Shown: positions 1-9,701 of the stretch, one piece after another
Layout: each line of letters begins with the position of its first letter
Numbering within the stretch: position 1 is the stretch's first letter
Origin: a virus
Lineage: Duplodnaviria; Heunggongvirae; Uroviricota; Caudoviricetes
Direction: 5' to 3' (one strand)
IMG/VR virus record: IMGVR_UViG_2703719365_000027
Span: 1-9,701 of that record
Length of the DNA stretch: 9,701 nucleotides
Translations under genes and position numbers: made by a program
The notes under the pieces: model-generated
Seen by the model: the letters and a program-made list of their open reading frames with translations, nothing else
Database searches by the model: none
What the model was told of the DNA's origin: nothing

Positions 1-948
1 TCACTCTCCTTTGATGCGAATGCCAGCAAGCCAGTTTCTTATGCCGATATATTCAGCGTTCCTGAAACCGCTTTTTACATATATAAATGGCAAGCGAAGA
101 TTGTGACCATTGACTGCCAGGTAGTCTTTACAACCCTGTTCGGTGAAACAGCAGGTAACGAATTCATCAATATCTTTCACAGCAACGCGCCGCCATTTTT
201 CTGGTGGCTCTCGAAAGTTTTCATGAAGTAGCTCGAGACGACGACTATGGCGTTTATTGGCTTCATTGCCATCTTCGTCAACCCAGACAATCCGGTCATG
301 GTCATAATCAGCATCAACAACGATTTCGCGCTTTTGATACACACAAAACATGGGATCTGACGTTATTCGATTGTCCTGTGTTCGAATATTTTCACCGATG
401 ATGCCAAACGAATCTGGTGCAGATTTTGTCTGCATCTCTTCGATACGTTCAGCCATCGCAGCACACTCTTCAAAGTTGCTTAATGCTTTTCGCTCCCATT
501 CGGCGCATTGTTTTTCCAGTTCTGCTATGCGCTTACTTCCATCCGCGATTACTCCCTCGTAATATTCACGCTGCTCGTTGAGTTTTGATTTTGCTGCTTC
601 AAGCTCAACGCGCAGCTTCCCTACCGTAAGCGCAATATCCTCGTTCTCCTGGTCGCGGCGTTTGATGTATTGCTGGTTTCTTTCCCGTTCATCCAGAAGC
701 GCCAGCGCAACATTTGGATTAAAGGCAGCAATAAATTCAGCGTTTGCGTAAGCCTGAGCATCTGTTTCAACCAGGCAGTTAACATGACATTCTGCAATCA
801 CGCCACCGGGTTCTCCTTTCCATTTTTGACAAACAAAAACTCCTGTTATATTCCCATGCTGATTGCCCGATGTATGCCCTACGATGTAGCATCCTTTAGT
901 TGCTTTCTCTGCTGCTTCACGCAGCGCCTGATAGTCAATCTCGCTCAT
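1..948 (-). CDS. Ea22-like (ead/Ea22 family) prophage early protein, 315 aa
   Basis: Complete minus-strand ORF with ATG at 948 and TGA at 1-3. N-terminus MSEIDYQALREAAEKAT resembles the conserved N-terminal signature of ead/Ea22-like prophage proteins (from memory). Central coiled-coil-like charged region. ATGA start/stop overlap with the upstream ORF at 945-948. Confidence 0.6.
   Translation of the reverse strand: MSEIDYQALREAAEKATKGCYIVGHTSGNQHGNITGVFVCQKWKGEPGGVIAECHVNCLVETDAQAYANAEFIAAFNPNVALALLDERERNQQYIKRRDQENEDIALTVGKLRVELEAAKSKLNEQREYYEGVIADGSKRIAELEKQCAEWERKALSNFEECAAMAERIEEMQTKSAPDSFGIIGENIRTQDNRITSDPMFCVYQKREIVVDADYDHDRIVWVDEDGNEANKRHSRRLELLHENFREPPEKWRRVAVKDIDEFVTCCFTEQGCKDYLAVNGHNLRLPFIYVKSGFRNAEYIGIRNWLAGIRIKGE
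4..29. repeat. 26-bp repeat CTCTCCTTTGATGCGAATGCCAGCAA (copy A) at the 3' end of the Ea22-like gene
   Basis: 25 of 26 identical to 1751-1776. Encodes the C-terminal AGIRIKGE and the AAAGGAGAG ribosome-binding site for the next gene. Confidence 0.7.
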
Positions 949-1121
949 TCATCGCCCCACTCATCACAATATGCTTCGACCGCAGTTTTCCCTGCTTCAT
1001 AATCATCACGCCATGCTTCAGCATCAGCGGCACTTCCACCGCGTAACTCTGCATAATCCATTAACAGTTCATGCCATTCTTCAAAACTGGCGTTATATTT
1101 AGTTGAACCAAAATCAGCCAT
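945..1121 (-). CDS. small highly acidic hypothetical protein, 58 aa (MADFGSTKYN...)
   Basis: ATG at 1121 is preceded by GAGGAAGGA at good spacing. The track start at 1139 has no Shine-Dalgarno. 16 Asp/Glu versus 4 Lys/Arg. Stop overlaps the Ea22-like start (ATGA). Confidence 0.45.
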   Translation of the reverse strand: MADFGSTKYNASFEEWHELLMDYAELRGGSAADAEAWRDDYEAGKTAVEAYCDEWGDE

Positions 1122-1296
1122 TTTGTCCTTCCTCTTCATCTTTTATTTCGTGGTATGAGTAATTGCAGTGGTTAAAGAAAATTCCTTTTGCTTCGTCATG
1201 AATTTCATCAGGTGTTGCGTCATCATCTACTTCGAATACATCCTCAAAATCTCCACCAGCTATTCCCGTTTCAATAATTATTTTGAATTTTCGCAT
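1114..1296 (-). CDS. small highly acidic hypothetical protein, 60 aa
   Basis: ATG at 1296, TGA at 1114-1116, overlapping the next start by 8 nt (ATGGCTGA). 17 Asp/Glu versus 5 Lys/Arg. No strong Shine-Dalgarno, so confidence is modest. Confidence 0.4.
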   Translation of the reverse strand: MRKFKIIIETGIAGGDFEDVFEVDDDATPDEIHDEAKGIFFNHCNYSYHEIKDEEEGQNG

Positions 1297-1389
1297 TTCA
1301 CTACCGCCATTTCGAACGGCCTCCTGATGTTCTGAGGGTGCAGAAATCCCTCCGGTTAAGGATTAAATTTTTAACAGTGCTAAATTTAA

Positions 1390-1746
1390 TTATTCAGTTC
1401 TTGATTTTGCCGCCCTGCGTATCCGCGCTTTCGCGTTACGCTCAATCTGAATTAGCTTTTCTATATTTTTCCGCCTTTCCTGTTCCTCCTGTCGCAATAG
1501 CCTTACGTCATCTGCCAGTCTGGTTTCTCTTTTCGCCACAGAGAGCATCCAGTCAAACGGCTCCACAACTGCACCGCAGATTTTACAACGGACCTGACGC
1601 TCTTTTTCGTCAACCCGGACAGAGGCGTGATGACAATATGGTCTTTCCGATGGCTCATAAAGAAAATTAACCTGATTACGTGGGTCATCCTCTTTTACCG
1701 GAAATAAAACAATATTACTTAACTCATCTTCTGGTTTGATTTCCAT
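1390..1746 (-). CDS. hypothetical zinc-ribbon-like protein with basic coiled-coil tail, 118 aa
   Basis: ATG at 1746 is preceded by AAAGGAGAGGAG. The track start at 1779 is GTG with no Shine-Dalgarno. Cys/His cluster (CHH ... CKIC) followed by an Arg/Lys/Glu-rich C-terminus. Start overlaps the upstream ORF by 23 nt. Confidence 0.5.
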   Translation of the reverse strand: MEIKPEDELSNIVLFPVKEDDPRNQVNFLYEPSERPYCHHASVRVDEKERQVRCKICGAVVEPFDWMLSVAKRETRLADDVRLLRQEEQERRKNIEKLIQIERNAKARIRRAAKSRTE

Positions 1747-2188
1747 GCTCCTCTCCTTTGATGCGAATACCAGCAACACGTAGTACGTGCTCTAAATCAG
1801 CCAGATAAATCCAGCAGCCATTTTCTTTAGGTATCATGACGTGGCGCTCATCAGCATTTATCGGATGTCCATATCGAAGGCCGTAGCGAGTCGGTAAATG
1901 AACTTCCCGCGCTTCCAGCTCTTTAACGCGCTCCTCGAGTGCGTAGACTCTGCATTGTTCTTCATCATCAATCAGATATAACCCTAGACATTCGCTTTCT
2001 ACCCAGCCACCGAAATCATGATCGTAACGCTCACACGAAAACTCACCATCGCTGTCCTTTGTTGGAATGGTGTAACTGTCTAATGGGCCACCATACGTCG
2101 GTACATTTCCCAATTTCGGATGCTCAATCCACATGAAAAATGCACGTCCGGTTATTGGGCAAATATCTGGTCGCCATTGGTTACTCAC
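1724..2188 (-). CDS. hypothetical protein whose C-terminus resembles the Ea22-like C-terminal module (DUF551-like, tentative), about 154 aa
   Basis: ORF open from 2215. I prefer GTG at 2188 because AGGAGG lies 6 nt upstream. C-terminal ...VAGIRIKGE is shared with the Ea22-like ORF (...LAGIRIKGE), and a YDHD motif is also shared. Confidence 0.5.
   Translation of the reverse strand: MSNQWRPDICPITGRAFFMWIEHPKLGNVPTYGGPLDSYTIPTKDSDGEFSCERYDHDFGGWVESECLGLYLIDDEEQCRVYALEERVKELEAREVHLPTRYGLRYGHPINADERHVMIPKENGCWIYLADLEHVLRVAGIRIKGEEHGNQTRR
1751..1776. repeat. 26-bp repeat (copy B) at the 3' end of the 1724-2188 gene
   Basis: 25 of 26 identical to 4-29. Identity stops abruptly on both sides. Confidence 0.7.
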
Positions 2189-2480
2189 TGTTTGCCTCCT
2201 GGAAAATAACTGCATGCCCCAGCTTCTCCGCCAGTGCCAGTTCTGCCTTAGCGCCTGCCGACCGCTGCCAGCCTTTCAGCATGTAAATCGCATCCACGCA
2301 GCGTATCATTGACATGCAAATATCCATGTAGTGCGGCTGTGTCAGCCCGTCCGGAAGTACTGCCGGGTTTAAGACTGTATGCCCTTCCCGTTTCAGTTCC
2401 TCTTCCGCCTTGTGGAACGCCTCACGGTTGAAATTTTTATACCCGGTCATCGGACCGGCGATATAAACCCTCACCCTCAC
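2181..2480 (-). CDS. DUF4406-type protein (nucleoside 2-deoxyribosyltransferase-like fold), 99 aa
   Basis: GTG start at 2480 with AGGAGGTGA 5 nt upstream. GTGA overlap with the upstream stop. N-terminal VYIAGPMTGY...N motif is typical of the deoxyribosyltransferase-like/DUF4406 family (from memory). Confidence 0.55.
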   Translation of the reverse strand: MRVRVYIAGPMTGYKNFNREAFHKAEEELKREGHTVLNPAVLPDGLTQPHYMDICMSMIRCVDAIYMLKGWQRSAGAKAELALAEKLGHAVIFQEANSE

Positions 2481-2869
2481 TCCATCACCTCCTGAAAATT
2501 ACCCCGATAGAACGCCAGCACACGCTGCATAACTTCGCTCTGGCGGCACTCACGACAAATTATGTTCTGCCGTCTGTTGTAACGACGTATTTCTCCGTCA
2601 GGTAACTTTCGAATCAGTGTCGGGTCAGCAGCCTTCTCCGGTGTCTTACGCCATACGCGATACGCCTGCTCTGATAGAAATACCCCGCAACCAGAGAGCC
2701 AGACATCACCACTGGCCGCAAGCGCACCAGATAAACGACGAATAGCGGTCTTACTGACACCCGTTTTATCTGCCAGTTGTCGAAAAGTTTCTCGTCCGCT
2801 CAGGCGCACGAATTCCACAATGCGCGCCCTCACTTCTTCCCGCTCTTCTGGTGTAAATACTTTTGCCAT
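2477..2869 (-). CDS. hypothetical protein with probable winged-helix segment, 130 aa
   Basis: ATG at 2869 with GGAGG 5 nt upstream. The track start at 2884 is TTG. Segment FRQLADKTGVSKTAIRRL is HTH-like. Cys pair CRECRQ. Confidence 0.5.
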   Translation of the reverse strand: MAKVFTPEEREEVRARIVEFVRLSGRETFRQLADKTGVSKTAIRRLSGALAASGDVWLSGCGVFLSEQAYRVWRKTPEKAADPTLIRKLPDGEIRRYNRRQNIICRECRQSEVMQRVLAFYRGNFQEVME

Positions 2870-2884
2870 AAGCGCCTCCGGCAA

Positions 2885-3655
2885 TCACTTTTCCGACACA
2901 ATACGACCGGATGAATCGACAATCTGCCGAACAATATCCCGGTGCTTGTTCAGCTCCCGCAGCGCGGCGCAGACACGCTCCCACTTCTGAACCTGACCTT
3001 TTGCCCGGCGCAGCTCGCGGTTTGCCATTTGCAGCGATGGTAAAATCAGGTCATTGGCTCGCGTTTCAGTGAACGATGGTAGTAACTGCACAATGTCCCC
3101 CACAGTATCTGTTTTAATTTCTTCCTGTGTTGCCGCTTCCCGGACTGGTAACGCAGCACCTGCTGGCTGAGGAAAGGCCTTACCATCACTTTCCGTTACC
3201 AGCGCGGCTTTCGGCTCTGCTGGTAAATTATCGCCCGGCATGCAGTAACGAAATCCACCGTTCTGATTAACGCGTGCCAGCCGCCCCGTTGCGGTTACCA
3301 CCGCCAGCGTGGAAGCAACCTTGCGAGTACTGACACCGAACTTACCCGCTATTTCTTCACAGGTTTTAGCCCCCTCCTGAGCGATAAACTCAATCATCAT
3401 GTTAGCGCTAACTTTTGGAGCGACCTCTTCGGTCAGCATATTCTGTGTTTCAGATTTTACTGGCCGCTCTTCGGTTACCCGGGATTCACCTTCGACAGCC
3501 AGAAACCAGGTGTGACCCGTTTTATCAACAACGCCATTTTTTTTGAGCTCCCACAGTTCGTTCAGCACTTCTTCACGACTGATATCAAGTCGAGCAGCAA
3601 GTTCTATGGATGTGGCTTTTCCCATTGCTTTCAGTGCGTCAAAAACAGTCTCCAT
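2885..3655 (-). CDS. phage-associated winged-helix DNA-binding protein (DUF1627-like, tentative), 256 aa
   Basis: ATG at 3655 with GGGAGA upstream. The track start at 3688 is TTG. N-terminal ~60 aa look like a winged helix ([28 protein letters not shown]); a second HTH-like stretch sits mid-protein; C-terminus is coiled-coil. Immediately downstream of the DnaC-like gene. Confidence 0.5.
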
Positions 3656-3677
3656 TAAATTTTTCTCCCGGTAAAAA

Positions 3678-4424
3678 TTACTTCGCAATTCCTAGCTGGA
3701 CGACATTCGGACGCCAGCTCTCCCAGTTAAAATTCACCCATCGCCCGCCGTTCATGGTCATGCGATCCATAATCCGCTCGCCGAGCAATGTTTTCATGGC
3801 CTCATAGTTCAGGTTTGTCAGCATCCCCACGCTGCGCATCGAAGCTGTCCGGCGATCAACAATCTGGTGCAGTACCACCTGCTCGTTTTTCGTCTCACGC
3901 TGGATGCCAATTTCGTCAAGAACCAGGAGGTCCACTTCGCACAGTTCACGCAAAAATTTTTCGCCTGACTGCCCGTCGTCATAGCTGGCGTGCAGGGCGC
4001 TCATAACATCAGCCACGGTAACCACAATCACTGTCTGACCGTCTTTCAGCAGGCGATTCCCGATAGCTGCCGCTAAGTGATTCTTCCCGGTACCAGGTTT
4101 TCCGCTGAACGCAAAATTTGTATACCCAGTCATCAGTTCATCAGCGATGGATTTCGCCTGGCTTAACGCGTATCGCTGGCCGTCGTTCTGCACCTGGTAA
4201 TTCGCAAACGAGCATTTACGGTGCAACGGCTGGATGCCAGAGCGATTCAGAATTTTTTCCACCCGCAACTGACGATTCAGACGGTTGATCTCCTCGCAAC
4301 GTTTCTGGCCTTCAGTAAGTTGCCACTCACGCCACTCCGCAACCGTTCTGAATGGGGCGGTTACATGTGGTGGGGTCAGTCTGCGGATACGCTCCAGAAC
4401 GCCGCCTGTCGCAATATTTTTCAT
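3678..4424 (-). CDS. DnaC/IstB-like AAA+ helicase loader, 248 aa
   Basis: Walker [12 protein letters not shown] and Walker B LLVLDEIG. Size and motifs fit phage DnaC-like loaders. Sits directly downstream of the replication initiator gene. Confidence 0.85.
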
Positions 4425-4430
4425 GGTCTG

Positions 4431-5219
4431 TTACCCCCTGAAGCCTGGCGGGATCGCACTGTCCGGCAACGAGACGGTGTTAACCTGTCGGAGCAACGTC
4501 TCAGGCCGAACACCTTTCGGTGCGAACAAGCCCTGGTATTCATTGGCGATGCTGTGTCGAATCACCTGCTCAGGTGTAAAACCCTGCTGACGGAATTTTT
4601 CCAGTTCCCGTATCGCCCCGTTAGCGCCCTGCTCCGTTCGAATCGGTTTTCGCAATGCCTGCCTGAACTGAACCCACTCATGCCAGAGTGTTTCCGGCAA
4701 CCAGTCAGGCAGCTCGATAGCCTCCGGCTCGAATTTTTTAGACGCTCGTTTTTGGCGAGGGGGATTTAGGGGGAGATCAGTATTTATATCTTCCTCTTCC
4801 TCTTCCTCTGGTAACGCTTTTTGATCCGTTTGTGTAACGCTGGCAGCGTTACCTTTTCGTTTCAGTTCGCGTATTTTTGTAACTCGCTCGTTTGTAACCG
4901 CCCGTTTTTTAGAGCTTTTCCCGTTATGACGTTCAAAGTTAGGTAGAGAAAGCCCACCGTCATTTTCGACCAGCCATCCAACCTGAATTAACGCATCAGC
5001 AAAACCAGCCATAAAAGTGATGCGATCTATTGCACTTTTTGTAACGCCGCGAGCGTTACAATCTGCATTACCGTCTATCATTTGTTGATCCGCCCATGCC
5101 CAGAAGCGAATAACCTTCCCTAATGCGGCATCTGGATCAATATTCAGAATCTCAGCAAGCCTGAATATTTCCGGCTTATCCGGCGTAATAACCTCGAGCT
5201 TTATCCAGTTTGAAGCCAT
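4431..5219 (-). CDS. phage replication initiation/primosomal protein (C-terminal region DnaT-like, tentative), 262 aa
   Basis: ATG at 5219 with AAGGTGA upstream. Sits ahead of the DnaC-like gene as in lambdoid replication modules. Internal poly-Glu linker (EEEEEED). The gene body carries palindromic repeats (see repeat features). Confidence 0.6.
   Translation of the reverse strand: MASNWIKLEVITPDKPEIFRLAEILNIDPDAALGKVIRFWAWADQQMIDGNADCNARGVTKSAIDRITFMAGFADALIQVGWLVENDGGLSLPNFERHNGKSSKKRAVTNERVTKIRELKRKGNAASVTQTDQKALPEEEEEEDINTDLPLNPPRQKRASKKFEPEAIELPDWLPETLWHEWVQFRQALRKPIRTEQGANGAIRELEKFRQQGFTPEQVIRHSIANEYQGLFAPKGVRPETLLRQVNTVSLPDSAIPPGFRG
4834..4852. repeat. 19-bp palindrome GTAACGCT-GGC-AGCGTTAC (copy 1), with extra half-site GGTAACGCT at 4810-4818
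   Basis: Perfect 8-bp arms. Lies inside the replication initiator coding sequence. Confidence 0.7.
5041..5059. repeat. 19-bp palindrome GTAACGC-CGCGA-GCGTTAC (copy 2)
   Basis: 7-bp perfect arms. Lies inside the replication initiator coding sequence. Confidence 0.65.
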
Positions 5220-5232
5220 TTGTTTTCACCTT

Positions 5233-5251
5233 GTAACGCTCGCAGCGTTAC
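5233..5251. repeat. 19-bp palindrome GTAACGCT-CGC-AGCGTTAC (copy 3)
   Basis: Perfect 8-bp arms. Intergenic, 14 bp upstream of the replication initiator start codon, directly abutting its ribosome-binding site. Confidence 0.7.
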
Positions 5252-5296
5252 ATTTAACTGATACCGAACAAAACAATCCGGCACGATTAATTTCAA

Positions 5297-5719
5297 TCAA
5301 TGCACTACGACAGAATCGCCGGGCGACCCACCACCGCTGAAATGTGCTTTCCGGTAAACGGCCTGGACTGCATCATCATGCGCATCAATTGCCGTACTCA
5401 ACGCTTCCTGCGCCGCCAGTAATGCACGGCGTTCCAGGGTATCGAAGATGCAGAGTCGGTGACGCAGCTCGCGCGGAATAATTGCCAGAACCGCAGGGAT
5501 CAGTTTCTGAATTTTTTCCCTTTGCGCTTTCGTTTCACCTTTCAACCAACGGTGATAGATATTCTGCTGATTGTTCCAGTCCTTGCCTGGTACAAGGGGC
5601 AATTCGCCGCCCCCCTGGCGCAGATATTCTTCAGTAATTGCGTTAGCGACCCACGCCTGCCCTTTTTCGGCTGCCAGGGCTAACAACACTGATTCGATGT
5701 GCTCATGCCTGATTTTCAT
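5297..5719 (-). CDS. CII-like regulator, YdaT-family candidate, 140 aa
   Basis: ATGA overlap with the Cro-like gene stop (5716-5719), implying translational coupling. Second gene of the rightward-equivalent operon, same size as Rac YdaT (from memory). Confidence 0.5.
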   Translation of the reverse strand: MKIRHEHIESVLLALAAEKGQAWVANAITEEYLRQGGGELPLVPGKDWNNQQNIYHRWLKGETKAQREKIQKLIPAVLAIIPRELRHRLCIFDTLERRALLAAQEALSTAIDAHDDAVQAVYRKAHFSGGGSPGDSVVVH

Positions 5720-5958
5720 GAATCAACCGCTCCTATGCTGTTTTCGCTATGCTTACCGTCTGGGGGGAATACATCGTCAAGTCCACAATGAGCGCCAAGC
5801 CGATTAAGGGTAGAAACAATTTTTCTGCACTCCTCTAGTCCAGGGGTACGAAAATTTGCTTCGTAATTTGCCAGTCGGCTTTGTATCCACCCTAACTGAA
5901 CAGCAAGTTGTCTTTGAGACAGCCCAAGCTGTTTTCGATATGTTGAAATTTTGTTCAT
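5716..5958 (-). CDS. Cro-like XRE-family HTH regulator, 80 aa
   Basis: ATG at 5958 with GGAGG 6 nt upstream. HTH LGLSQRQLAVQLGWIQSRLANYEA. Divergent from the repressor gene across a 96-bp operator region. Confidence 0.7.
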   Translation of the reverse strand: MNKISTYRKQLGLSQRQLAVQLGWIQSRLANYEANFRTPGLEECRKIVSTLNRLGAHCGLDDVFPPDGKHSENSIGAVDS

Positions 5959-5978
5959 TGAAAACCTCCGATGACAAT

Positions 5979-6007
5979 TTTAAACACATCCTGTGTTATA
6001 TGGTCAA
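5979..6007 (-). promoter_or_regulatory. candidate PR-like sigma70 promoter for the Cro-like operon (TTGACC-17 bp-TTTAAA)
   Basis: Reading the minus strand: -35 TTGACC (plus 6002-6007), 17-bp spacer containing the AACACA-N3-TGTGTT operator, -10 TTTAAA (plus 5979-5984). The resulting leader is short (~14 nt). Confidence 0.4.
5983..5997. promoter_or_regulatory. operator-like inverted repeat AACACA-TCC-TGTGTT
   Basis: Perfect 6-bp arms with a 3-bp spacer inside the divergent intergenic region. The same motif family recurs at the rightward early promoter (6559-6573 and 6582-6596). Confidence 0.5.
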
Positions 6008-6029
6008 GCTGTTTTGTGTTTTATGTAAA

Positions 6030-6042
6030 TCACGATTCGTGA
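6030..6042. promoter_or_regulatory. perfect 13-bp palindrome TCACGA-T-TCGTGA just upstream of the repressor ribosome-binding site
   Basis: Seen directly. It is a different motif from the AACACA/TGTGTT sites, so it may bind a second regulator. Confidence 0.4.
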
Positions 6043-6054
6043 TACAAGGATGCA

Positions 6055-6474
6055 ATGGAAAAAGAAAACGAAAAAATTGCCGCTAGTAGGCTCAATGACA
6101 AAATTGCAATGCGTCTTAAAGAGCGCAGGCAGAAGCTTGGTTTATCTCAAGGAAAACTTGCTGAAATCTGCGGATGGACGCAATCGCGTATAGGTAACTA
6201 TGAGGCGGGCAGCAGAAATGTTGGAGTGCATGACGCTGTCGTATTGGGAAAGGCACTTGGCATATCTCCTCCTGAGCTCCTCTTTGGAGAACAGGAATCT
6301 TCTGAATTGTGGTTAAATGAATCCCAACGAAAACTTCTTGAGTTGTTTAACCAGCTACCGGGCTCAGAACAACAACGAATGATTGAGCTATTTGAAGTCC
6401 GGCTAAAAGAAATCGATGAGTATGTAGAAAAATATTTGAGAGGCAGGCTTAAAGATAATCCCCTACCGGAGTAA
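6055..6474 (+). CDS. prophage repressor, XRE/cI-like HTH without peptidase domain (RacR/DicA-type), 139 aa
   Basis: ATG at 6055 with AAGGA upstream. HTH LGLSQGKLAEICGWTQSRIGNYEA. No S24 peptidase Ser/Lys motif and too short to carry one. Divergent from the Cro-like gene and followed by an intrinsic terminator. Confidence 0.8.
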   Translation: MEKENEKIAASRLNDKIAMRLKERRQKLGLSQGKLAEICGWTQSRIGNYEAGSRNVGVHDAVVLGKALGISPPELLFGEQESSELWLNESQRKLLELFNQLPGSEQQRMIELFEVRLKEIDEYVEKYLRGRLKDNPLPE

Positions 6475-6503
6475 TGATCTTGCTATCACAGTAATATGCC
6501 AAT

Positions 6504-6530
6504 CAGCCCGCTATCAGCGGGCTTTTTTTG
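6504..6530 (+). terminator. intrinsic terminator after the repressor gene
   Basis: Stem AGCCCGC / GCGGGCT (7 bp) with loop TATCA, followed by TTTTTTT. Confidence 0.75.
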
Positions 6531-6558
6531 TACCATCATCATATGACACCCACCCTAA

Positions 6559-6573
6559 AACACATTTCGTGTT
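6559..6573. promoter_or_regulatory. operator-like site AACACA-TTT-CGTGTT overlapping the -35 of the rightward early promoter
   Basis: Same 6-3-6 geometry as the site at 5983-5997, with 11 of 12 arm positions matching. Confidence 0.45.
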
Positions 6574-6600
6574 GACATAAGAAAACGTATTGTGTTTAAT
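6572..6600 (+). promoter_or_regulatory. near-consensus sigma70 promoter (pL-like): TTGACA-17 bp-TTTAAT
   Basis: -35 TTGACA at 6572-6577, exact 17-bp spacer, -10 TTTAAT at 6595-6600. A second degenerate operator AAAACG-TAT-TGTGTT (6582-6596) overlaps the -10. Drives the ydaF-like to recE operon. Confidence 0.6.
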
Positions 6601-6780
6601 AAGCATATCCAAACAACGCCCCACCAGAGAACGGCAGGACAATACCTCGAGTTATCCAGCCACTGAACAGGGCTAAGTAGCCAGCCTGAGGCATACGAAC
6701 ATGACGGCAGTTGTTGATTGATACAAAGCGCAGTAGATAAAACGTTCCGCCACCCGGCGTTAAGGGGAAATGAGGTCAAC

Positions 6781-6933
6781 ATGGATACTATCGATCTTGG
6801 CAACAACGAATCTCTGGTATGTGGCGTGTTTCCCAATCAGGACGGCACATTCACCGCCATGACGTATACCAAAAGCAAATCGTTTAAAACCGAAGCTGGC
6901 GCACGTCGCTGGCTTGCCAAAAATACCAGCTAA
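6781..6933 (+). CDS. DUF1391-type small protein (YdaF/YdfA-like), 50 aa
   Basis: ATG at 6781 with GAGG 5 nt upstream. MDTIDLGNNESLV... resembles the small proteins that follow the repressor in the Rac and Qin prophages (from memory). Preceded by a ~174-nt untranslated leader. Confidence 0.6.
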   Translation: MDTIDLGNNESLVCGVFPNQDGTFTAMTYTKSKSFKTEAGARRWLAKNTS

Positions 6934-7114
6934 ACCATTTATTGGATTAATTCAATATTCTTGCTGTAGGGGTATAGCCGAGGCCACCAAAGCCCGGAGG
7001 TGGTGAAATAAAACCGGGCACAACACGAAGGCGCATTTCCGGTATCCATAAAGAGTCGGTCTTGTCTGTTAAATTTAAATGGTGGGAGTGCGCCTCCGGT
7101 TGTGAATAACAACA

Positions 7115-7178
7115 CTGCTGTGTGTAGTCTTGGCGGCATCAGTTTTTTCTTGAAGTTCGACTGATGTCCGCCCTTTTT
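7115..7178 (+). ncRNA. dicF: DicF-like small RNA candidate (5' end approximate)
   Basis: Sequence TTGGCGGCATCAGTTTT ... CCGCCCTTTTT matches the DicF 3' region as I recall it from the Qin prophage. Sits in a 420-bp ORF-free gap and ends in an intrinsic terminator. Confidence 0.5.
7132..7178 (+). terminator. intrinsic terminator (also the 3' hairpin of the DicF-like RNA)
   Basis: Stem GGCGGCATCAG / CTGATG-T-CCGCC (11 bp, one bulged T), 18-nt loop, then CTTTTT. Confidence 0.7.
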
Positions 7179-7353
7179 AAAGTGAATTTTGTGATGCGGT
7201 GAATGCGGCTAAGCGCACGCGGCACAGTTAAAAGTCATGTTAGTCCTTATTGGTTTGGGTGGGAAAGCCGACTGTAATTGTTAACTGGTTGCAGTCACCT
7301 GGAGGCACCAGGCACCGCATCAACAAAGTTCATTTGTAAAAATGGAGATAATT

Positions 7354-7575
7354 ATGATTGCACATCACTTCGGAACTGATGAAATACCACGTCAGTGTGT
7401 GACTCCTGGTGATTATGTTCTTCATGAAGGCCGGACATATATCGCCTCGGCAAACAATATTAAAAAACGAAAACTTTATATTCGTAACCTGACCACAAAA
7501 ACATGCATTTCTGACTGCATGGTTAAAGTCTTCCTCGGTAGTGATGGTTTACCTGTAAAAGCGGAGTCATGGTGA
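7354..7575 (+). CDS. kilR: KilR, Rac-prophage FtsZ-targeting cell-division inhibitor, 73 aa
   Basis: ATG at 7354 with GGAG 6 nt upstream. [46 protein letters not shown]... matches KilR as I recall it. Position ahead of ydaE-racC-recE is as in Rac. Confidence 0.75.
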
Positions 7576-7745
7576 TGGATAAGAAAATAAAATGTGCTTA
7601 CCACCTTTGCAAAAAAGACGTTGAAGAAAGCAAAACTATTGAAAGAATGCTTCATTTCATGCACGGAACTTTATCAAAAGACGAACCGAGAAAATATTGC
7701 AGTGAAACTTGTGCCGAAAAAAACCAGATGGCACACGAACTTTAA
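7575..7745 (+). CDS. ydaE: YdaE-like small zinc-binding protein, 56 aa (absent from the ORF track, below its length cutoff)
   Basis: ATG at 7575 overlaps the kilR stop (TGATG), with GGAG 8 nt upstream. Cys pairs CAYHLC and [24 protein letters not shown]... matches Rac YdaE as recalled. Confidence 0.6.
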   Translation: MDKKIKCAYHLCKKDVEESKTIERMLHFMHGTLSKDEPRKYCSETCAEKNQMAHEL

Positions 7746-7819
7746 TTAACTGACTATTCGAAACTGAATTTATGCCAGCAATGGCAGGGATTCACTCAAC
7801 CTTAATTAAGGAGAAAAAC

Positions 7820-8095
7820 ATGATTACCAATTATGAAGCCACTGTTGTAACTACTGATGACATTGTTCACGAGGTCAATCTGGACGGAAAGCGTATTGGC
7901 TACGTGATTAAAACAGAAAATAAAGAAACCCCATTCACTGTGGTTGATATCGACGGTCCATCAGGCAACGTTAAAACACTTCACGAAGGCGTCAAAAAAA
8001 TGTGCCTGGTGCACATTGGAAATAATCTACCAGCAGAAAAAAAAGCTGAGTTTCTGGCAACTCTGATTGCAATGAAATTAAAAGATGAAATTTAA
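7820..8095 (+). CDS. racC: RacC-like protein, 91 aa
   Basis: ATG at 7820 with AAGGAG 6 nt upstream. The track start at 7772 has no Shine-Dalgarno. Size and position immediately upstream of recE match Rac racC. Confidence 0.65.
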   Translation: MITNYEATVVTTDDIVHEVNLDGKRIGYVIKTENKETPFTVVDIDGPSGNVKTLHEGVKKMCLVHIGNNLPAEKKAEFLATLIAMKLKDEI

Positions 8096-8124
8096 AAAAA
8101 AGAAAGCCTGCACAGTGTACAGGC
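8093..8124 (-). terminator. hairpin plus U-tract oriented for minus-strand transcripts, between racC and recE
   Basis: Plus strand reads A-tract (8093-8105) then hairpin GCCTG-CACAGTGTA-CAGGC (8106-8124). On the minus strand this is a hairpin followed by UUUCUUUUUUUU. No U-run follows it on the plus strand. Confidence 0.35.
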
Positions 8125-8195
8125 CTGAGTGAAAAACCTGGGACATTTATTCATCACTCGCACTAAATTTTAATCTGAGTTGAGGTTAAAAAACA

Positions 8196-9701
8196 ATGAG
8201 CACTGACAAACAAAATTTTGCGTTACATTGCGACGCGAAAAATGAGGGCGCAAGAAAACGCCTCGGCATCAAAGGCGGCTTTTTCTGGACAGAGGCAAAA
8301 AAACTTTCTGTTGCGGTTTCACGCTGCATTGCTGCAATGGACGATGCTGGCTACGATGAAGATGACTTTAAAAAACCCGTTCGCGTAAATTTCCCCGTCG
8401 TGAATGACCTTCCACCGGAAGGCGTGTTTGATACTGAATTCTGCAACCGCTATGAAAAAGGCGGGGAAGATGGCATCACCATGATGGCTATATCCTTCAA
8501 TGACAACATCAACGGTGAAGATGCCACAACTGCTGGCGATGACAACGATGACCCGGACGGAACTATTCCGGATGATGTGGAGAAAAGCGAATCCCCGGAC
8601 AGCGACGATGACTGTTCTGAGTGTGAAATTCCCGTCGCCACTCTGAGCCTTACTCATCGCTTCCTTCACCTCTTCTTCTTCAGCAAGGATGAAGATGGAA
8701 AATACCGGCATCACGCCACACCAGAACAACGCAATAACGTGATCCGTATGGAGATGGACACAGAGGACAGTTACCTTCAGAGCCTGCTTACTGCTGTGCG
8801 CGCCGCACATCATGAACTGGATAAACTGACGAACTATCACCTTAGTCGCCTGGCTGAATCTGTAGGGAAAGCATTCCCCCACTCTGCAAATCATCGCATC
8901 AGCCCGGCTGAATTCGACAAGTTCATTTCCACCTGGATGAAAACTGACTACCTTGATCAGGGCCTGCTGACAAAAGAATGGCAGAACGGAAATTATGTTT
9001 CAGGAATTACCCGTACGCCTTCCGGTGCTAACGCTGGCGGCGGAAATATTACCGATCGTGGTGAAGGATTCAAACATGATAAGACATCACTCGCACGAGA
9101 TGTAGCCACCGGCGTTCTGGCCCGTTCAATGGATGTGGATATTTATAACCTTCATCCGGCACACGCTAAACGTGTCGAGGAAATTATCGCTGAAAATAAA
9201 CCGCCCTTTTCTGTTTTCCGCGACAAATTCATCACCATGCCTGGCGGGCTGGATTATTCCCGCGCCATCGTGGTTGCGTCCGTAAAAGAAGCACCAATTG
9301 GGATCGAGGTTATCCCTGCGCATGTCACTGAATATCTGAACAAGGTGCTGATTGAAACCGATCATGCCAACCCTGATCCGGAAATCGTGGATATTGCCTG
9401 CGGTCGTTCCTCTGCCCCGATGCCGCAGCGTGTAACAGAAGAAGGAAAACACGATGGTGAAGAAAAACCGCAACCATCTTGCGCAATGGCAGATAAACAG
9501 GCAACGGCTGAAACAGTGGAACCGGATGCAACTGAACATCATCAGGACACGCAGCCGCTGGATGCTCAGTCACAGGTAAATTCTGTTGATGCGAAATATC
9601 AGAAACTGCGGGCAGAACTCCATGAAGCCCGGAAAACCATTCCGCCCAAAAATCCTGTCGATGCCGACAAATTGCTGGCTGCCTCTCGCGGAGAATTTGT
9701 T
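8196..9701 (+). CDS. recE: RecE (exodeoxyribonuclease VIII) N-terminal and central region, 502 codons, 3' end beyond the window
   Basis: ATG at 8196 with GAGG upstream. Open frame with no stop to the window end, which is why the track omits it. Segments [32 protein letters not shown] and [66 protein letters not shown] match Rac RecE as recalled. All minus-strand ORFs in 8300-9573 are antisense artefacts. Confidence 0.8.

Follow-up and report, generated by a model that had tools for sequence, protein, structure and literature searches.

Small RNAs (sRNAs) of Escherichia coli and its prophages offer the closest comparisons for the locus described here, the 420 nt gap between a DUF1391 gene and the division inhibitor gene kil (kilR) in a stretch of 9,701 nucleotides from a virus of the Caudoviricetes (IMG/VR record IMGVR_UViG_2703719365_000027, positions 1 to 9,701; the whole stretch is hereafter the window). 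The nearest is KilS, a Rac prophage RNA named by Bar et al. 2021, who gave its length as 98 nt and classed it as the 5′ untranslated region (UTR) of kilR (PMC8175672). In K-12, northern blots show KilS in the wild type, with accumulation in stationary phase, and its loss in a Δhfq strain; its own start site was mapped at 1,418,502 (supplement file 6) and an RNase E site at 1,418,471, i.e. after nt 32, while RIL-seq gave few chimeras and three partners, of which yncL is the named one (PMC8175672). DicF, RprA and prophages receive no mention in that paper. DicF, from the Qin prophage, pairs through its 3′ region with the ribosome-binding region of ftsZ and through its 5′ end with xylR (Balasubramanian et al. 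2016); its experimentally supported ftsZ site consists of ACUCCG plus CUGCUCUGCCGCC, set against positions −28 to −7. RprA, the product of a core enterobacterial gene, pairs by anti-site Ib (nt 60-75) with site Ib of csgD and, by the same seed, with ydaM (dgcM) just past the start codon, both contacts being proved by compensatory mutations, and csgD is lowered even when only the processed form RprA60-105 (the "highly conserved region") is supplied (Mika et al. 2012, PMC3465796).

We find that positions 7082-7178 of the window, on the plus strand, almost certainly encode an ortholog of KilS, the Hfq-dependent sRNA of Rac. The explanation that best covers the whole locus, to which we assign a probability of roughly 0.75, is a KilS ortholog that carries an RprA-type seed and whose terminator also shields kilR. 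The features on which the argument turns are as follows.

6962-7081 (+): region upstream of KilS, colinear with K-12 Rac by alignment, containing the inferred promoter
7082-7178 (+): KilS ortholog, 97 nt, made up of a 5′ hairpin, an RprA-like seed and a DicF-type intrinsic terminator (alignment to K-12 kilS b4833; fold)
7101-7131 (+): RprA-like block GUGAAUAACAACACUGCUGUGUGUAGUCUU, equivalent to RprA nt 47-77 (partial RprA-model alignment; pairwise score against shuffles)
7112-7129 (+): predicted seed core (C)ACUGCUGUGUGUAGUC, the RprA "anti-site Ib" (sequence match to the RprA conserved core)
7113/7114 (+): homologous RNase E site (K-12 site 1,418,471)
7119-7173 (+): match to the Rfam DicF model (RF00039), below threshold (42.8 bits, E 5.1e-8 for a 601-nt search)
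7132-7178 (+): intrinsic terminator and KilS 3′ end, GGCGGCAUCAGU...ACUGAUG-U-CCGCC, then C and UUUUU (folds)
7179-7353 (+): structured kilR leader, shared with the Qin dicB leader (fold, 57-copy consensus, Qin alignment)

The element is already known: K-12 Rac annotates the same RNA as the ncRNA kilS (b4833, 1,418,405-1,418,502), between sieB and kilR. K-12 Rac is colinear with the window from 6962 to the kil start codon, and the two RNAs (97 nt in the window, 98 nt in K-12) are separated by five substitutions and one indel. They share locus, strand, the kilR leader as downstream neighbour, start-site context, seed block and terminator. The K-12 start site maps to window position 7082, and an extended −10 promoter can be inferred 7 nt before this start, with its TG at 7067-7068 and its TAAATT at 7070-7075; the window conserves both the TGtTAAATT motif of K-12 and the surroundings of the start site, and a simple −35/−10 scan did not list the extended −10 at 7067-7075 among its promoters. 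The own start, the transcript of about 98 nt and the Hfq dependence come from K-12 data only. Differences from K-12 are the absence of sieB upstream, the changes G30A and U34C next to the seed, which lengthen the perfect csgD match to 16 bp, the loss of one loop U, and G80A, which turns a U-G pair of the K-12 stem into U-A. Copies of the KilS type (at least 90% identity) occur in 413 of 5426 complete genomes, many EHEC (enterohaemorrhagic E. coli) lineages among them, and carry no annotation in any of the matches listed; isolated phages also have the RNA, namely vB_EcoS-683R6 (99% identity) and Rac-SA53 (90%). An initial annotation of this DNA had proposed a hybrid dic/kil module in which the RNA replaces sieB. 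Because K-12 Rac carries the colinear KilS between sieB and kilR, the arrangement is native Rac and not a hybrid; the "hybrid division-control module" is no discovery, for the element is the ortholog of an sRNA already annotated in K-12 and stands in its usual prophage surroundings. What is added here is the RprA-seed reading, which is a prediction from sequence. We did not find a link between KilS and the RprA seed in the literature that was searched, which did not cover Faubladier & Bouché 1994 or Melson & Kendall 2019. A dicF-like sequence in Rac may, reportedly, already be mentioned in the first of these.

On folding 7082-7178, the 3′ hairpin has its 5′ arm at 7132-7144, a 14 nt loop at 7145-7158 and its 3′ arm at 7159-7172, giving 13 pairs and one bulged base, followed by C and by UUUUU at 7174-7178. 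The initial annotation was right that a hairpin with a T-tract lies at 7132-7178, and its 11 bp stem with an 18 nt loop comes near to this fold. The whole 97 nt RNA folds at −35.4 kcal/mol (z = −3.46), with an equally good fold in 1 of 200 shuffles. Among 15 representative variants the GGCGG/CCGCC basal stem and the U-tract are invariant, while upper stem and loop vary by type; RNAalifold over the hairpin types recovered only the invariant 5 bp base and, with indels separating the upper stems, no covariation. Since the KilS promoter points toward kilR, the terminator is the first barrier to kilR expression. Judged from the sequence, it would halt transcription arriving in cis, both from the KilS promoter and from further upstream, before the toxic kilR is reached. 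Silencing of kilR at the level of transcription termination is known (OxyS-nusG-kilR), and the proposal of a tL1-like terminator gating kilR, offered with the initial annotation as its plainer alternative, is plausible given a strong hairpin and U-tract between promoter and kilR. It is a further step to hold that the locus acts in cis alone, as a tL1-like terminator or attenuator that silences kilR-recE with the short RNA as a by-product. The position of the hairpin directly between promoter and toxic gene would suit this, as would the known silencing by termination, the invariance of stem base and U-tract among copies whose loop and 5′ part vary freely, and the classification of KilS as a kilR 5′ UTR with few RIL-seq chimeras (PMC8175672). 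Against it, the RNA requires Hfq, on which it becomes ligated to specific mRNAs, and a role in cis is compatible with one in trans; the rest of the evidence against a purely cis-acting element lies in the 5′ part of the RNA.

Directly 5′ of the terminator, in the place that the corresponding block also occupies in RprA, window KilS shares 16 identical nt (UGCUGUGUGUAGUCUU) with RprA within about 30 nt of similarity; for K-12 KilS, 24 of 26 positions match. The local alignment score of 37-40 compares with 12.4 ± 2.0 for shuffled sequences and was reached by none of 400. With the Rfam RprA model (RF00034) the window scores 24.5 bits (E 2.1; gathering score 70), and the alignment is convincing only around model positions 47-77, so that KilS is not a member of the RprA family; its seed would let it work in the manner of the RprA core. 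Further likenesses are processing at the homologous AUUGCUG position and yncL as a partner of both RNAs. The 5′ half of KilS is unlike that of RprA and has no rpoS-pairing or anti-site II region, the KilS terminator is a different one without anti-site Ia, and KilS is prophage-borne whereas RprA is a core gene. Cleavage by RNase E at 7113/7114 would leave a form of about 65 nt with AUUGCUGUGUGUAGUC... at its 5′ end, a position homologous to that of RprA60. This form would have a single-stranded 5′ seed before a terminator hairpin, the architecture of both DicF and RprA60-105.

Interactions were scored by adding to a windowed hybrid energy the energy needed to open each of the two RNAs, a home-made calculation and not IntaRNA; the positive controls, DicF-ftsZ and RprA-rpoS, were both recovered at their known sites. 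It replaced plain RNAduplex on full-length RNAs, which gave whole-molecule duplexes no better than shuffles. The KilS seed is complementary to csgD −96 to −84 and to ydaM +3 to +14, the targets of RprA anti-site Ib, and the predicted sites are as follows.

csgD −99 to −83, full-length window KilS: hybrid −29.5, net −14.2 kcal/mol, 16 consecutive pairs (15 for RprA)
csgD −99 to −83, processed KilS: net about −18 kcal/mol
dgcM +3 to +14, processed KilS: net −8.7 kcal/mol, 11 consecutive pairs
yncL −38 to −27, processed KilS: net −5.6 kcal/mol

On the rpoS leader, no favourable or equivalent site was found for KilS (net +1.3 to +2.4 kcal/mol), compared with −9.8 kcal/mol for RprA at its known site. 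Both TRIC-seq and RIL-seq list yncL as a partner of RprA. Of the 5426 genomes, 5345 have the csgD leader, and strain E2865 combines it with KilS, each at 100% identity. Deletion of rac is reported to increase early biofilm (PMC4632033); this observation is circumstantial only.

These matches return us to the suggestion that the locus acts only in cis. The 5′ block contains a 16 nt exact copy of a proven core-sRNA seed, with similarity extending over about 30 nt; it is to precisely this block that yncL, the named partner that KilS shares with RprA, is complementary, and the mapped RNase E site exposes the block. We therefore regard a purely cis-acting element as unlikely. A different use of the same seed is that KilS might serve as a decoy or competitor, titrating RprA targets or Hfq, or being itself sponged, and so modulating RprA output. 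The identity of its seed to that of RprA, the shared partner yncL and the accumulation of both RNAs in stationary phase would fit; the apparently low abundance of KilS speaks against effective titration, and we consider this reading very unlikely.

For the KilS ortholog with an RprA-type seed, regulation of csgD and dgcM through that seed is, in our estimate, an even chance. KilS would repress csgD, dgcM and yncL and thereby link the prophage to the host curli and biofilm circuit; Rac-type phages would then need no Rcs/Cpx signalling to repress yncL and the CsgD/DgcM curli-biofilm switch. Several points weigh against this. The RIL-seq partners named for KilS do not include csgD, those libraries having been made under low-csgD growth conditions; KilS expression is weak and its chimeras are few. 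Most of the seed lies within the predicted 5′ hairpin of the full-length RNA, and freeing it costs 10-13 kcal/mol. KilS has neither anti-site Ia nor anti-site II of RprA, which are partly redundant with Ib, and Ib alone may not suffice. The RNase E site and the start site were mapped in K-12 and not in the strain of the window, and the energies come from a home-made hybrid-plus-accessibility model in place of IntaRNA. If the prediction is true, a common prophage RNA feeds directly into the host CsgD/DgcM biofilm decision, and the locus would offer a clear example of a host regulatory RNA whose functional core a phage has captured.

The initial annotation had instead likened the element to DicF. 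Rfam scans were run in gathering-threshold mode and in E-value mode: the former, over the whole window, gave no match, and in the latter DicF, STnc100 and partial RprA matches appear. The search with the DicF model, which the initial annotation had suggested, thus returned a match at 7119-7173 that spans the full model and, at 42.8 bits, falls short of the gathering score of 48; authentic DicF scores 76.7 bits and K-12 KilS 39.1 bits. The homology to DicF is genuine and covers the scaffold only. Common to the two RNAs are the GGCGG...CCGCC terminator base, the U-tract and the AUCAG...CUG inner stem, and the Qin and Rac sequences align from the terminator base (UGGCGG.AUCAG...CUG...CCGCCCUUUUU) through a 175 nt leader to the start codon of dicB or kilR. 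Both RNAs stand after a DUF1391 gene and before a division inhibitor, with homologous structured leaders of 175 nt, and both combine a single-stranded 5′ seed with a terminator hairpin, Hfq dependence and RNase E processing. Differences lie in the parts that carry DicF function. The 5′ seed is UGCUGUGUGUAGUC in KilS and UUUCUGGUGACGUUU in DicF, and the DicF seed UUUCUGGUGAC, used for xylR and pykA, is absent from KilS, with UGCUGUGUGUAGUC in its place; the KilS loop and 3′ arm are without ACUCCG...CUGCUCUGCC, so that no ftsZ pairing is predicted. KilS also has its own promoter and a 50 nt 5′ hairpin, and the gene downstream is kilR rather than dicB. Of the earlier claim of a DicF-like RNA, what stands is a DicF-type scaffold in an sRNA gene before kilR; the model score is below threshold and the functional DicF sequences are missing.

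That claim had gone further, proposing a DicF-type antisense RNA whose loop, at 7141-7153, acts on ftsZ, so that two division inhibitors would be arranged in series. Its premises are in part sound. The DicF-model match and the shared synteny favour it, the ftsZ leader had been given correctly (the K-12 leader reads UCGGAGAGAAACU-AUG), and the complementarity of 7141-7153 (AGUUUUUUCUUGA) to the Shine-Dalgarno region at 12 of 13 positions was counted correctly, four G-U pairs included. With one mismatch as well, however, the hybrid reaches only −6.6 kcal/mol for the 13-mer and −8.2 for the best local duplex, and the CAGU of a very stable stem must be opened; the total opening cost is 13.8 kcal/mol (stem 11.4, target 2.4), for a net of +5.6 kcal/mol. 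K-12 KilS, with one more U, forms a slightly better hybrid (−10.9) and still nets +2.9 kcal/mol. By the same calculation nt 31-53 of DicF against ftsZ −28 to −7 give a hybrid of −22.7 to −27.9 and a net of −8.2 kcal/mol. Neither ACUCCG nor CUGCUCUGCCGCC occurs in window KilS, and an unbiased scan found no favourable ftsZ site, either for the full-length RNA or for its processed form. Nor is ftsZ among the partners reported for KilS (PMC8175672). The initial annotation had itself made its reading depend on pairing with the real ftsZ leader, and because no favourable pairing with that leader was found, the ftsZ model fails on its own terms; as the native Rac arrangement also leaves no hybrid module to explain, we hold this reading to be extremely improbable. 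KilS very probably does not target ftsZ at all, and is more likely to act on biofilm genes than on cell division. As separate observations, RprA nt 56-76 are predicted to pair with ftsZ −28 to −10, the stretch bound by DicF, in a gappy duplex with a net of −6.7 kcal/mol, where the KilS seed gives +10 to +14 kcal/mol, and "ftsA" is among the RprA partners common to TRIC-seq and RIL-seq. A resemblance of the DicF 5′ end to DsrA was considered and dropped, as 71 of 400 shuffles score as well.

To place KilS among its relatives we gathered 136 copies through the conserved 3′ flank, requiring an exact 18-mer, which under-samples divergent relatives. The same flank search over one genome per species gave true matches only in Escherichia and Shigella; the others were chance matches without the hairpin. 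Across the 136 copies the stem base and U-tract are invariant and the other parts interchangeable. Three 5′ seed types occur, DicF (UUUCUGGUG), KilS (UGCUGUGUGUAGUC) and a third, CCAUGUUGAUUACC, which has no partial match to any Rfam family; there are several loop types, and either dicB or kilR lies downstream. DicF usually precedes dicB and KilS kilR, and recombinants occur. Thus canonical DicF stands upstream of kilR in three loci from IMG/VR and genome contigs (L109, L111 and L060), which are true DicF-kilR hybrids; the KilS 5′ seed is fused to the ftsZ-pairing loop of DicF, upstream of kilR, in L165 and L187; and KilS lies upstream of dicB in L156. In L132, L177, L183, L073, L154 and L123 the third seed type (…CAACAACCCAUGUUGAUUACC…) is combined with the same terminator and leader, and dicB usually follows. 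Seeds, loops and downstream toxin genes assort semi-independently, and the DicF-kilR hybrid that had been imagined for the window exists in nature, but elsewhere. We tentatively propose that KilS is a prophage copy of the RprA core seed on a DicF-type terminator and that the DicF/KilS locus is a seed-swapping cassette, a view to which we lean slightly less than to the regulation of csgD and dgcM. In such a cassette, one invariant terminator and leader would receive at least three 5′ seeds and at least four loops by recombination, with dicB and kilR as interchangeable partners. If true, the locus is a natural system for modular seed exchange.

The kilR leader that follows KilS consists of a 20 bp closing helix, a CCUGG-AGGCA-CCAGG hairpin and a hypervariable central domain, and ends with a Shine-Dalgarno GGAG at 7345-7348 before the kil ATG at 7354. 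It folds at −62.5 kcal/mol (z −4.22). Among 57 unique copies the consensus comprises 44 pairs, paired in at least 98% of copies except for one at 51/57, and four pairs are changed on both sides. Copies of the leader are also found on the minus strand at L002 2436-2609 and L004 1731-1905. The Rfam STnc100 model (RF02076) matches 7175-7361 at 37.4 bits (E 1.4e-6), below its gathering score of 47, with relatives at 28-42 bits; the alignment extends over the full model, including the closing helix and the invariant CACCUGGAGGCACCAGGCACC hairpin. Unlike the prophage sRNA family STnc100/PasD, whose PasD copies have been described near Q and LpxR genes (bioRxiv 10.64898/2026.05.13.724894), the structure serves here as 5′ leader to either kil or dicB within the early-left operon, and we found no evidence of the kilR leader accumulating as an sRNA. 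The closing helix begins 3 nt past the U-tract. Because the 72-nt RNase III form reported for Qin DicF would end inside this helix, Rac transcripts that read through the terminator, which would carry the long closing helix, are probably cut by RNase III as in Qin.

The 1 kb stretch around KilS is 100% identical to EHEC-type E. coli chromosomes (2013C-3342, 95NR1, O111:H8 8B), where it lies inside a Rac-like prophage integrated beside yebY/copD. On the plus strand of the window the order is helix-turn-helix (HTH) repressor, DUF1391 gene, KilS, leader, kil, ydaE, racC-like gene and recE. The neighbouring features are as follows.

6055-6474 (+): HTH repressor gene, confirmed by Pfam
6781-6933 (+): DUF1391 (ydaF-like) gene, confirmed by Pfam
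6934-6961 (no strand): sieB-less junction, a short spacer from the DUF1391 stop codon to the start of homology with the K-12 sieB-kilR spacer (three-way alignment of window, K-12 Rac and Qin; K-12 annotation)
7354-7575 (+): kil (kilR), encoding an FtsZ-inhibiting, host-killing protein (RefSeq annotation of the identical record; K-12 kilR annotation)

The absence of sieB, pointed out in the initial annotation, is clear from the alignment: position 6933 is the last of the DUF1391 gene, and the match with the K-12 sieB-kilR spacer sets in at about 6958-6962. This loss is a separate upstream indel and a common polymorphism, since the junction (query 6905-6990) is found in 223 of the 5426 complete E. 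coli genomes, at 289 places, mostly in EHEC lineages and including O157:H7, O55:H7, O111 and O26. Of the K-12 sequence, the window keeps the part that runs from some 47 bp ahead of the sieB ATG to the KilS start site. As had also been noted initially, the gap holds no credible open reading frame (ORF): the sole candidate, 66 aa on the minus strand at 6939-7139, begins within the terminator stem, has no Pfam match, varies from 21 to 96 aa among relatives and was judged non-coding. Just past the HTH repressor gene lies a further terminator-like hairpin at 6505-6523 (+), AGCCCGC-TAT-CAGCGGGCT followed by TTTTTTT; the repressor therefore probably does not simply share a transcript with the DUF1391 gene, KilS and kil. 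The RefSeq product name for kil (7354-7575; L001 9655-9876) reads "cell division protein FtsZ" in several genomes, which looks like a misnaming of the FtsZ inhibitor Kil.

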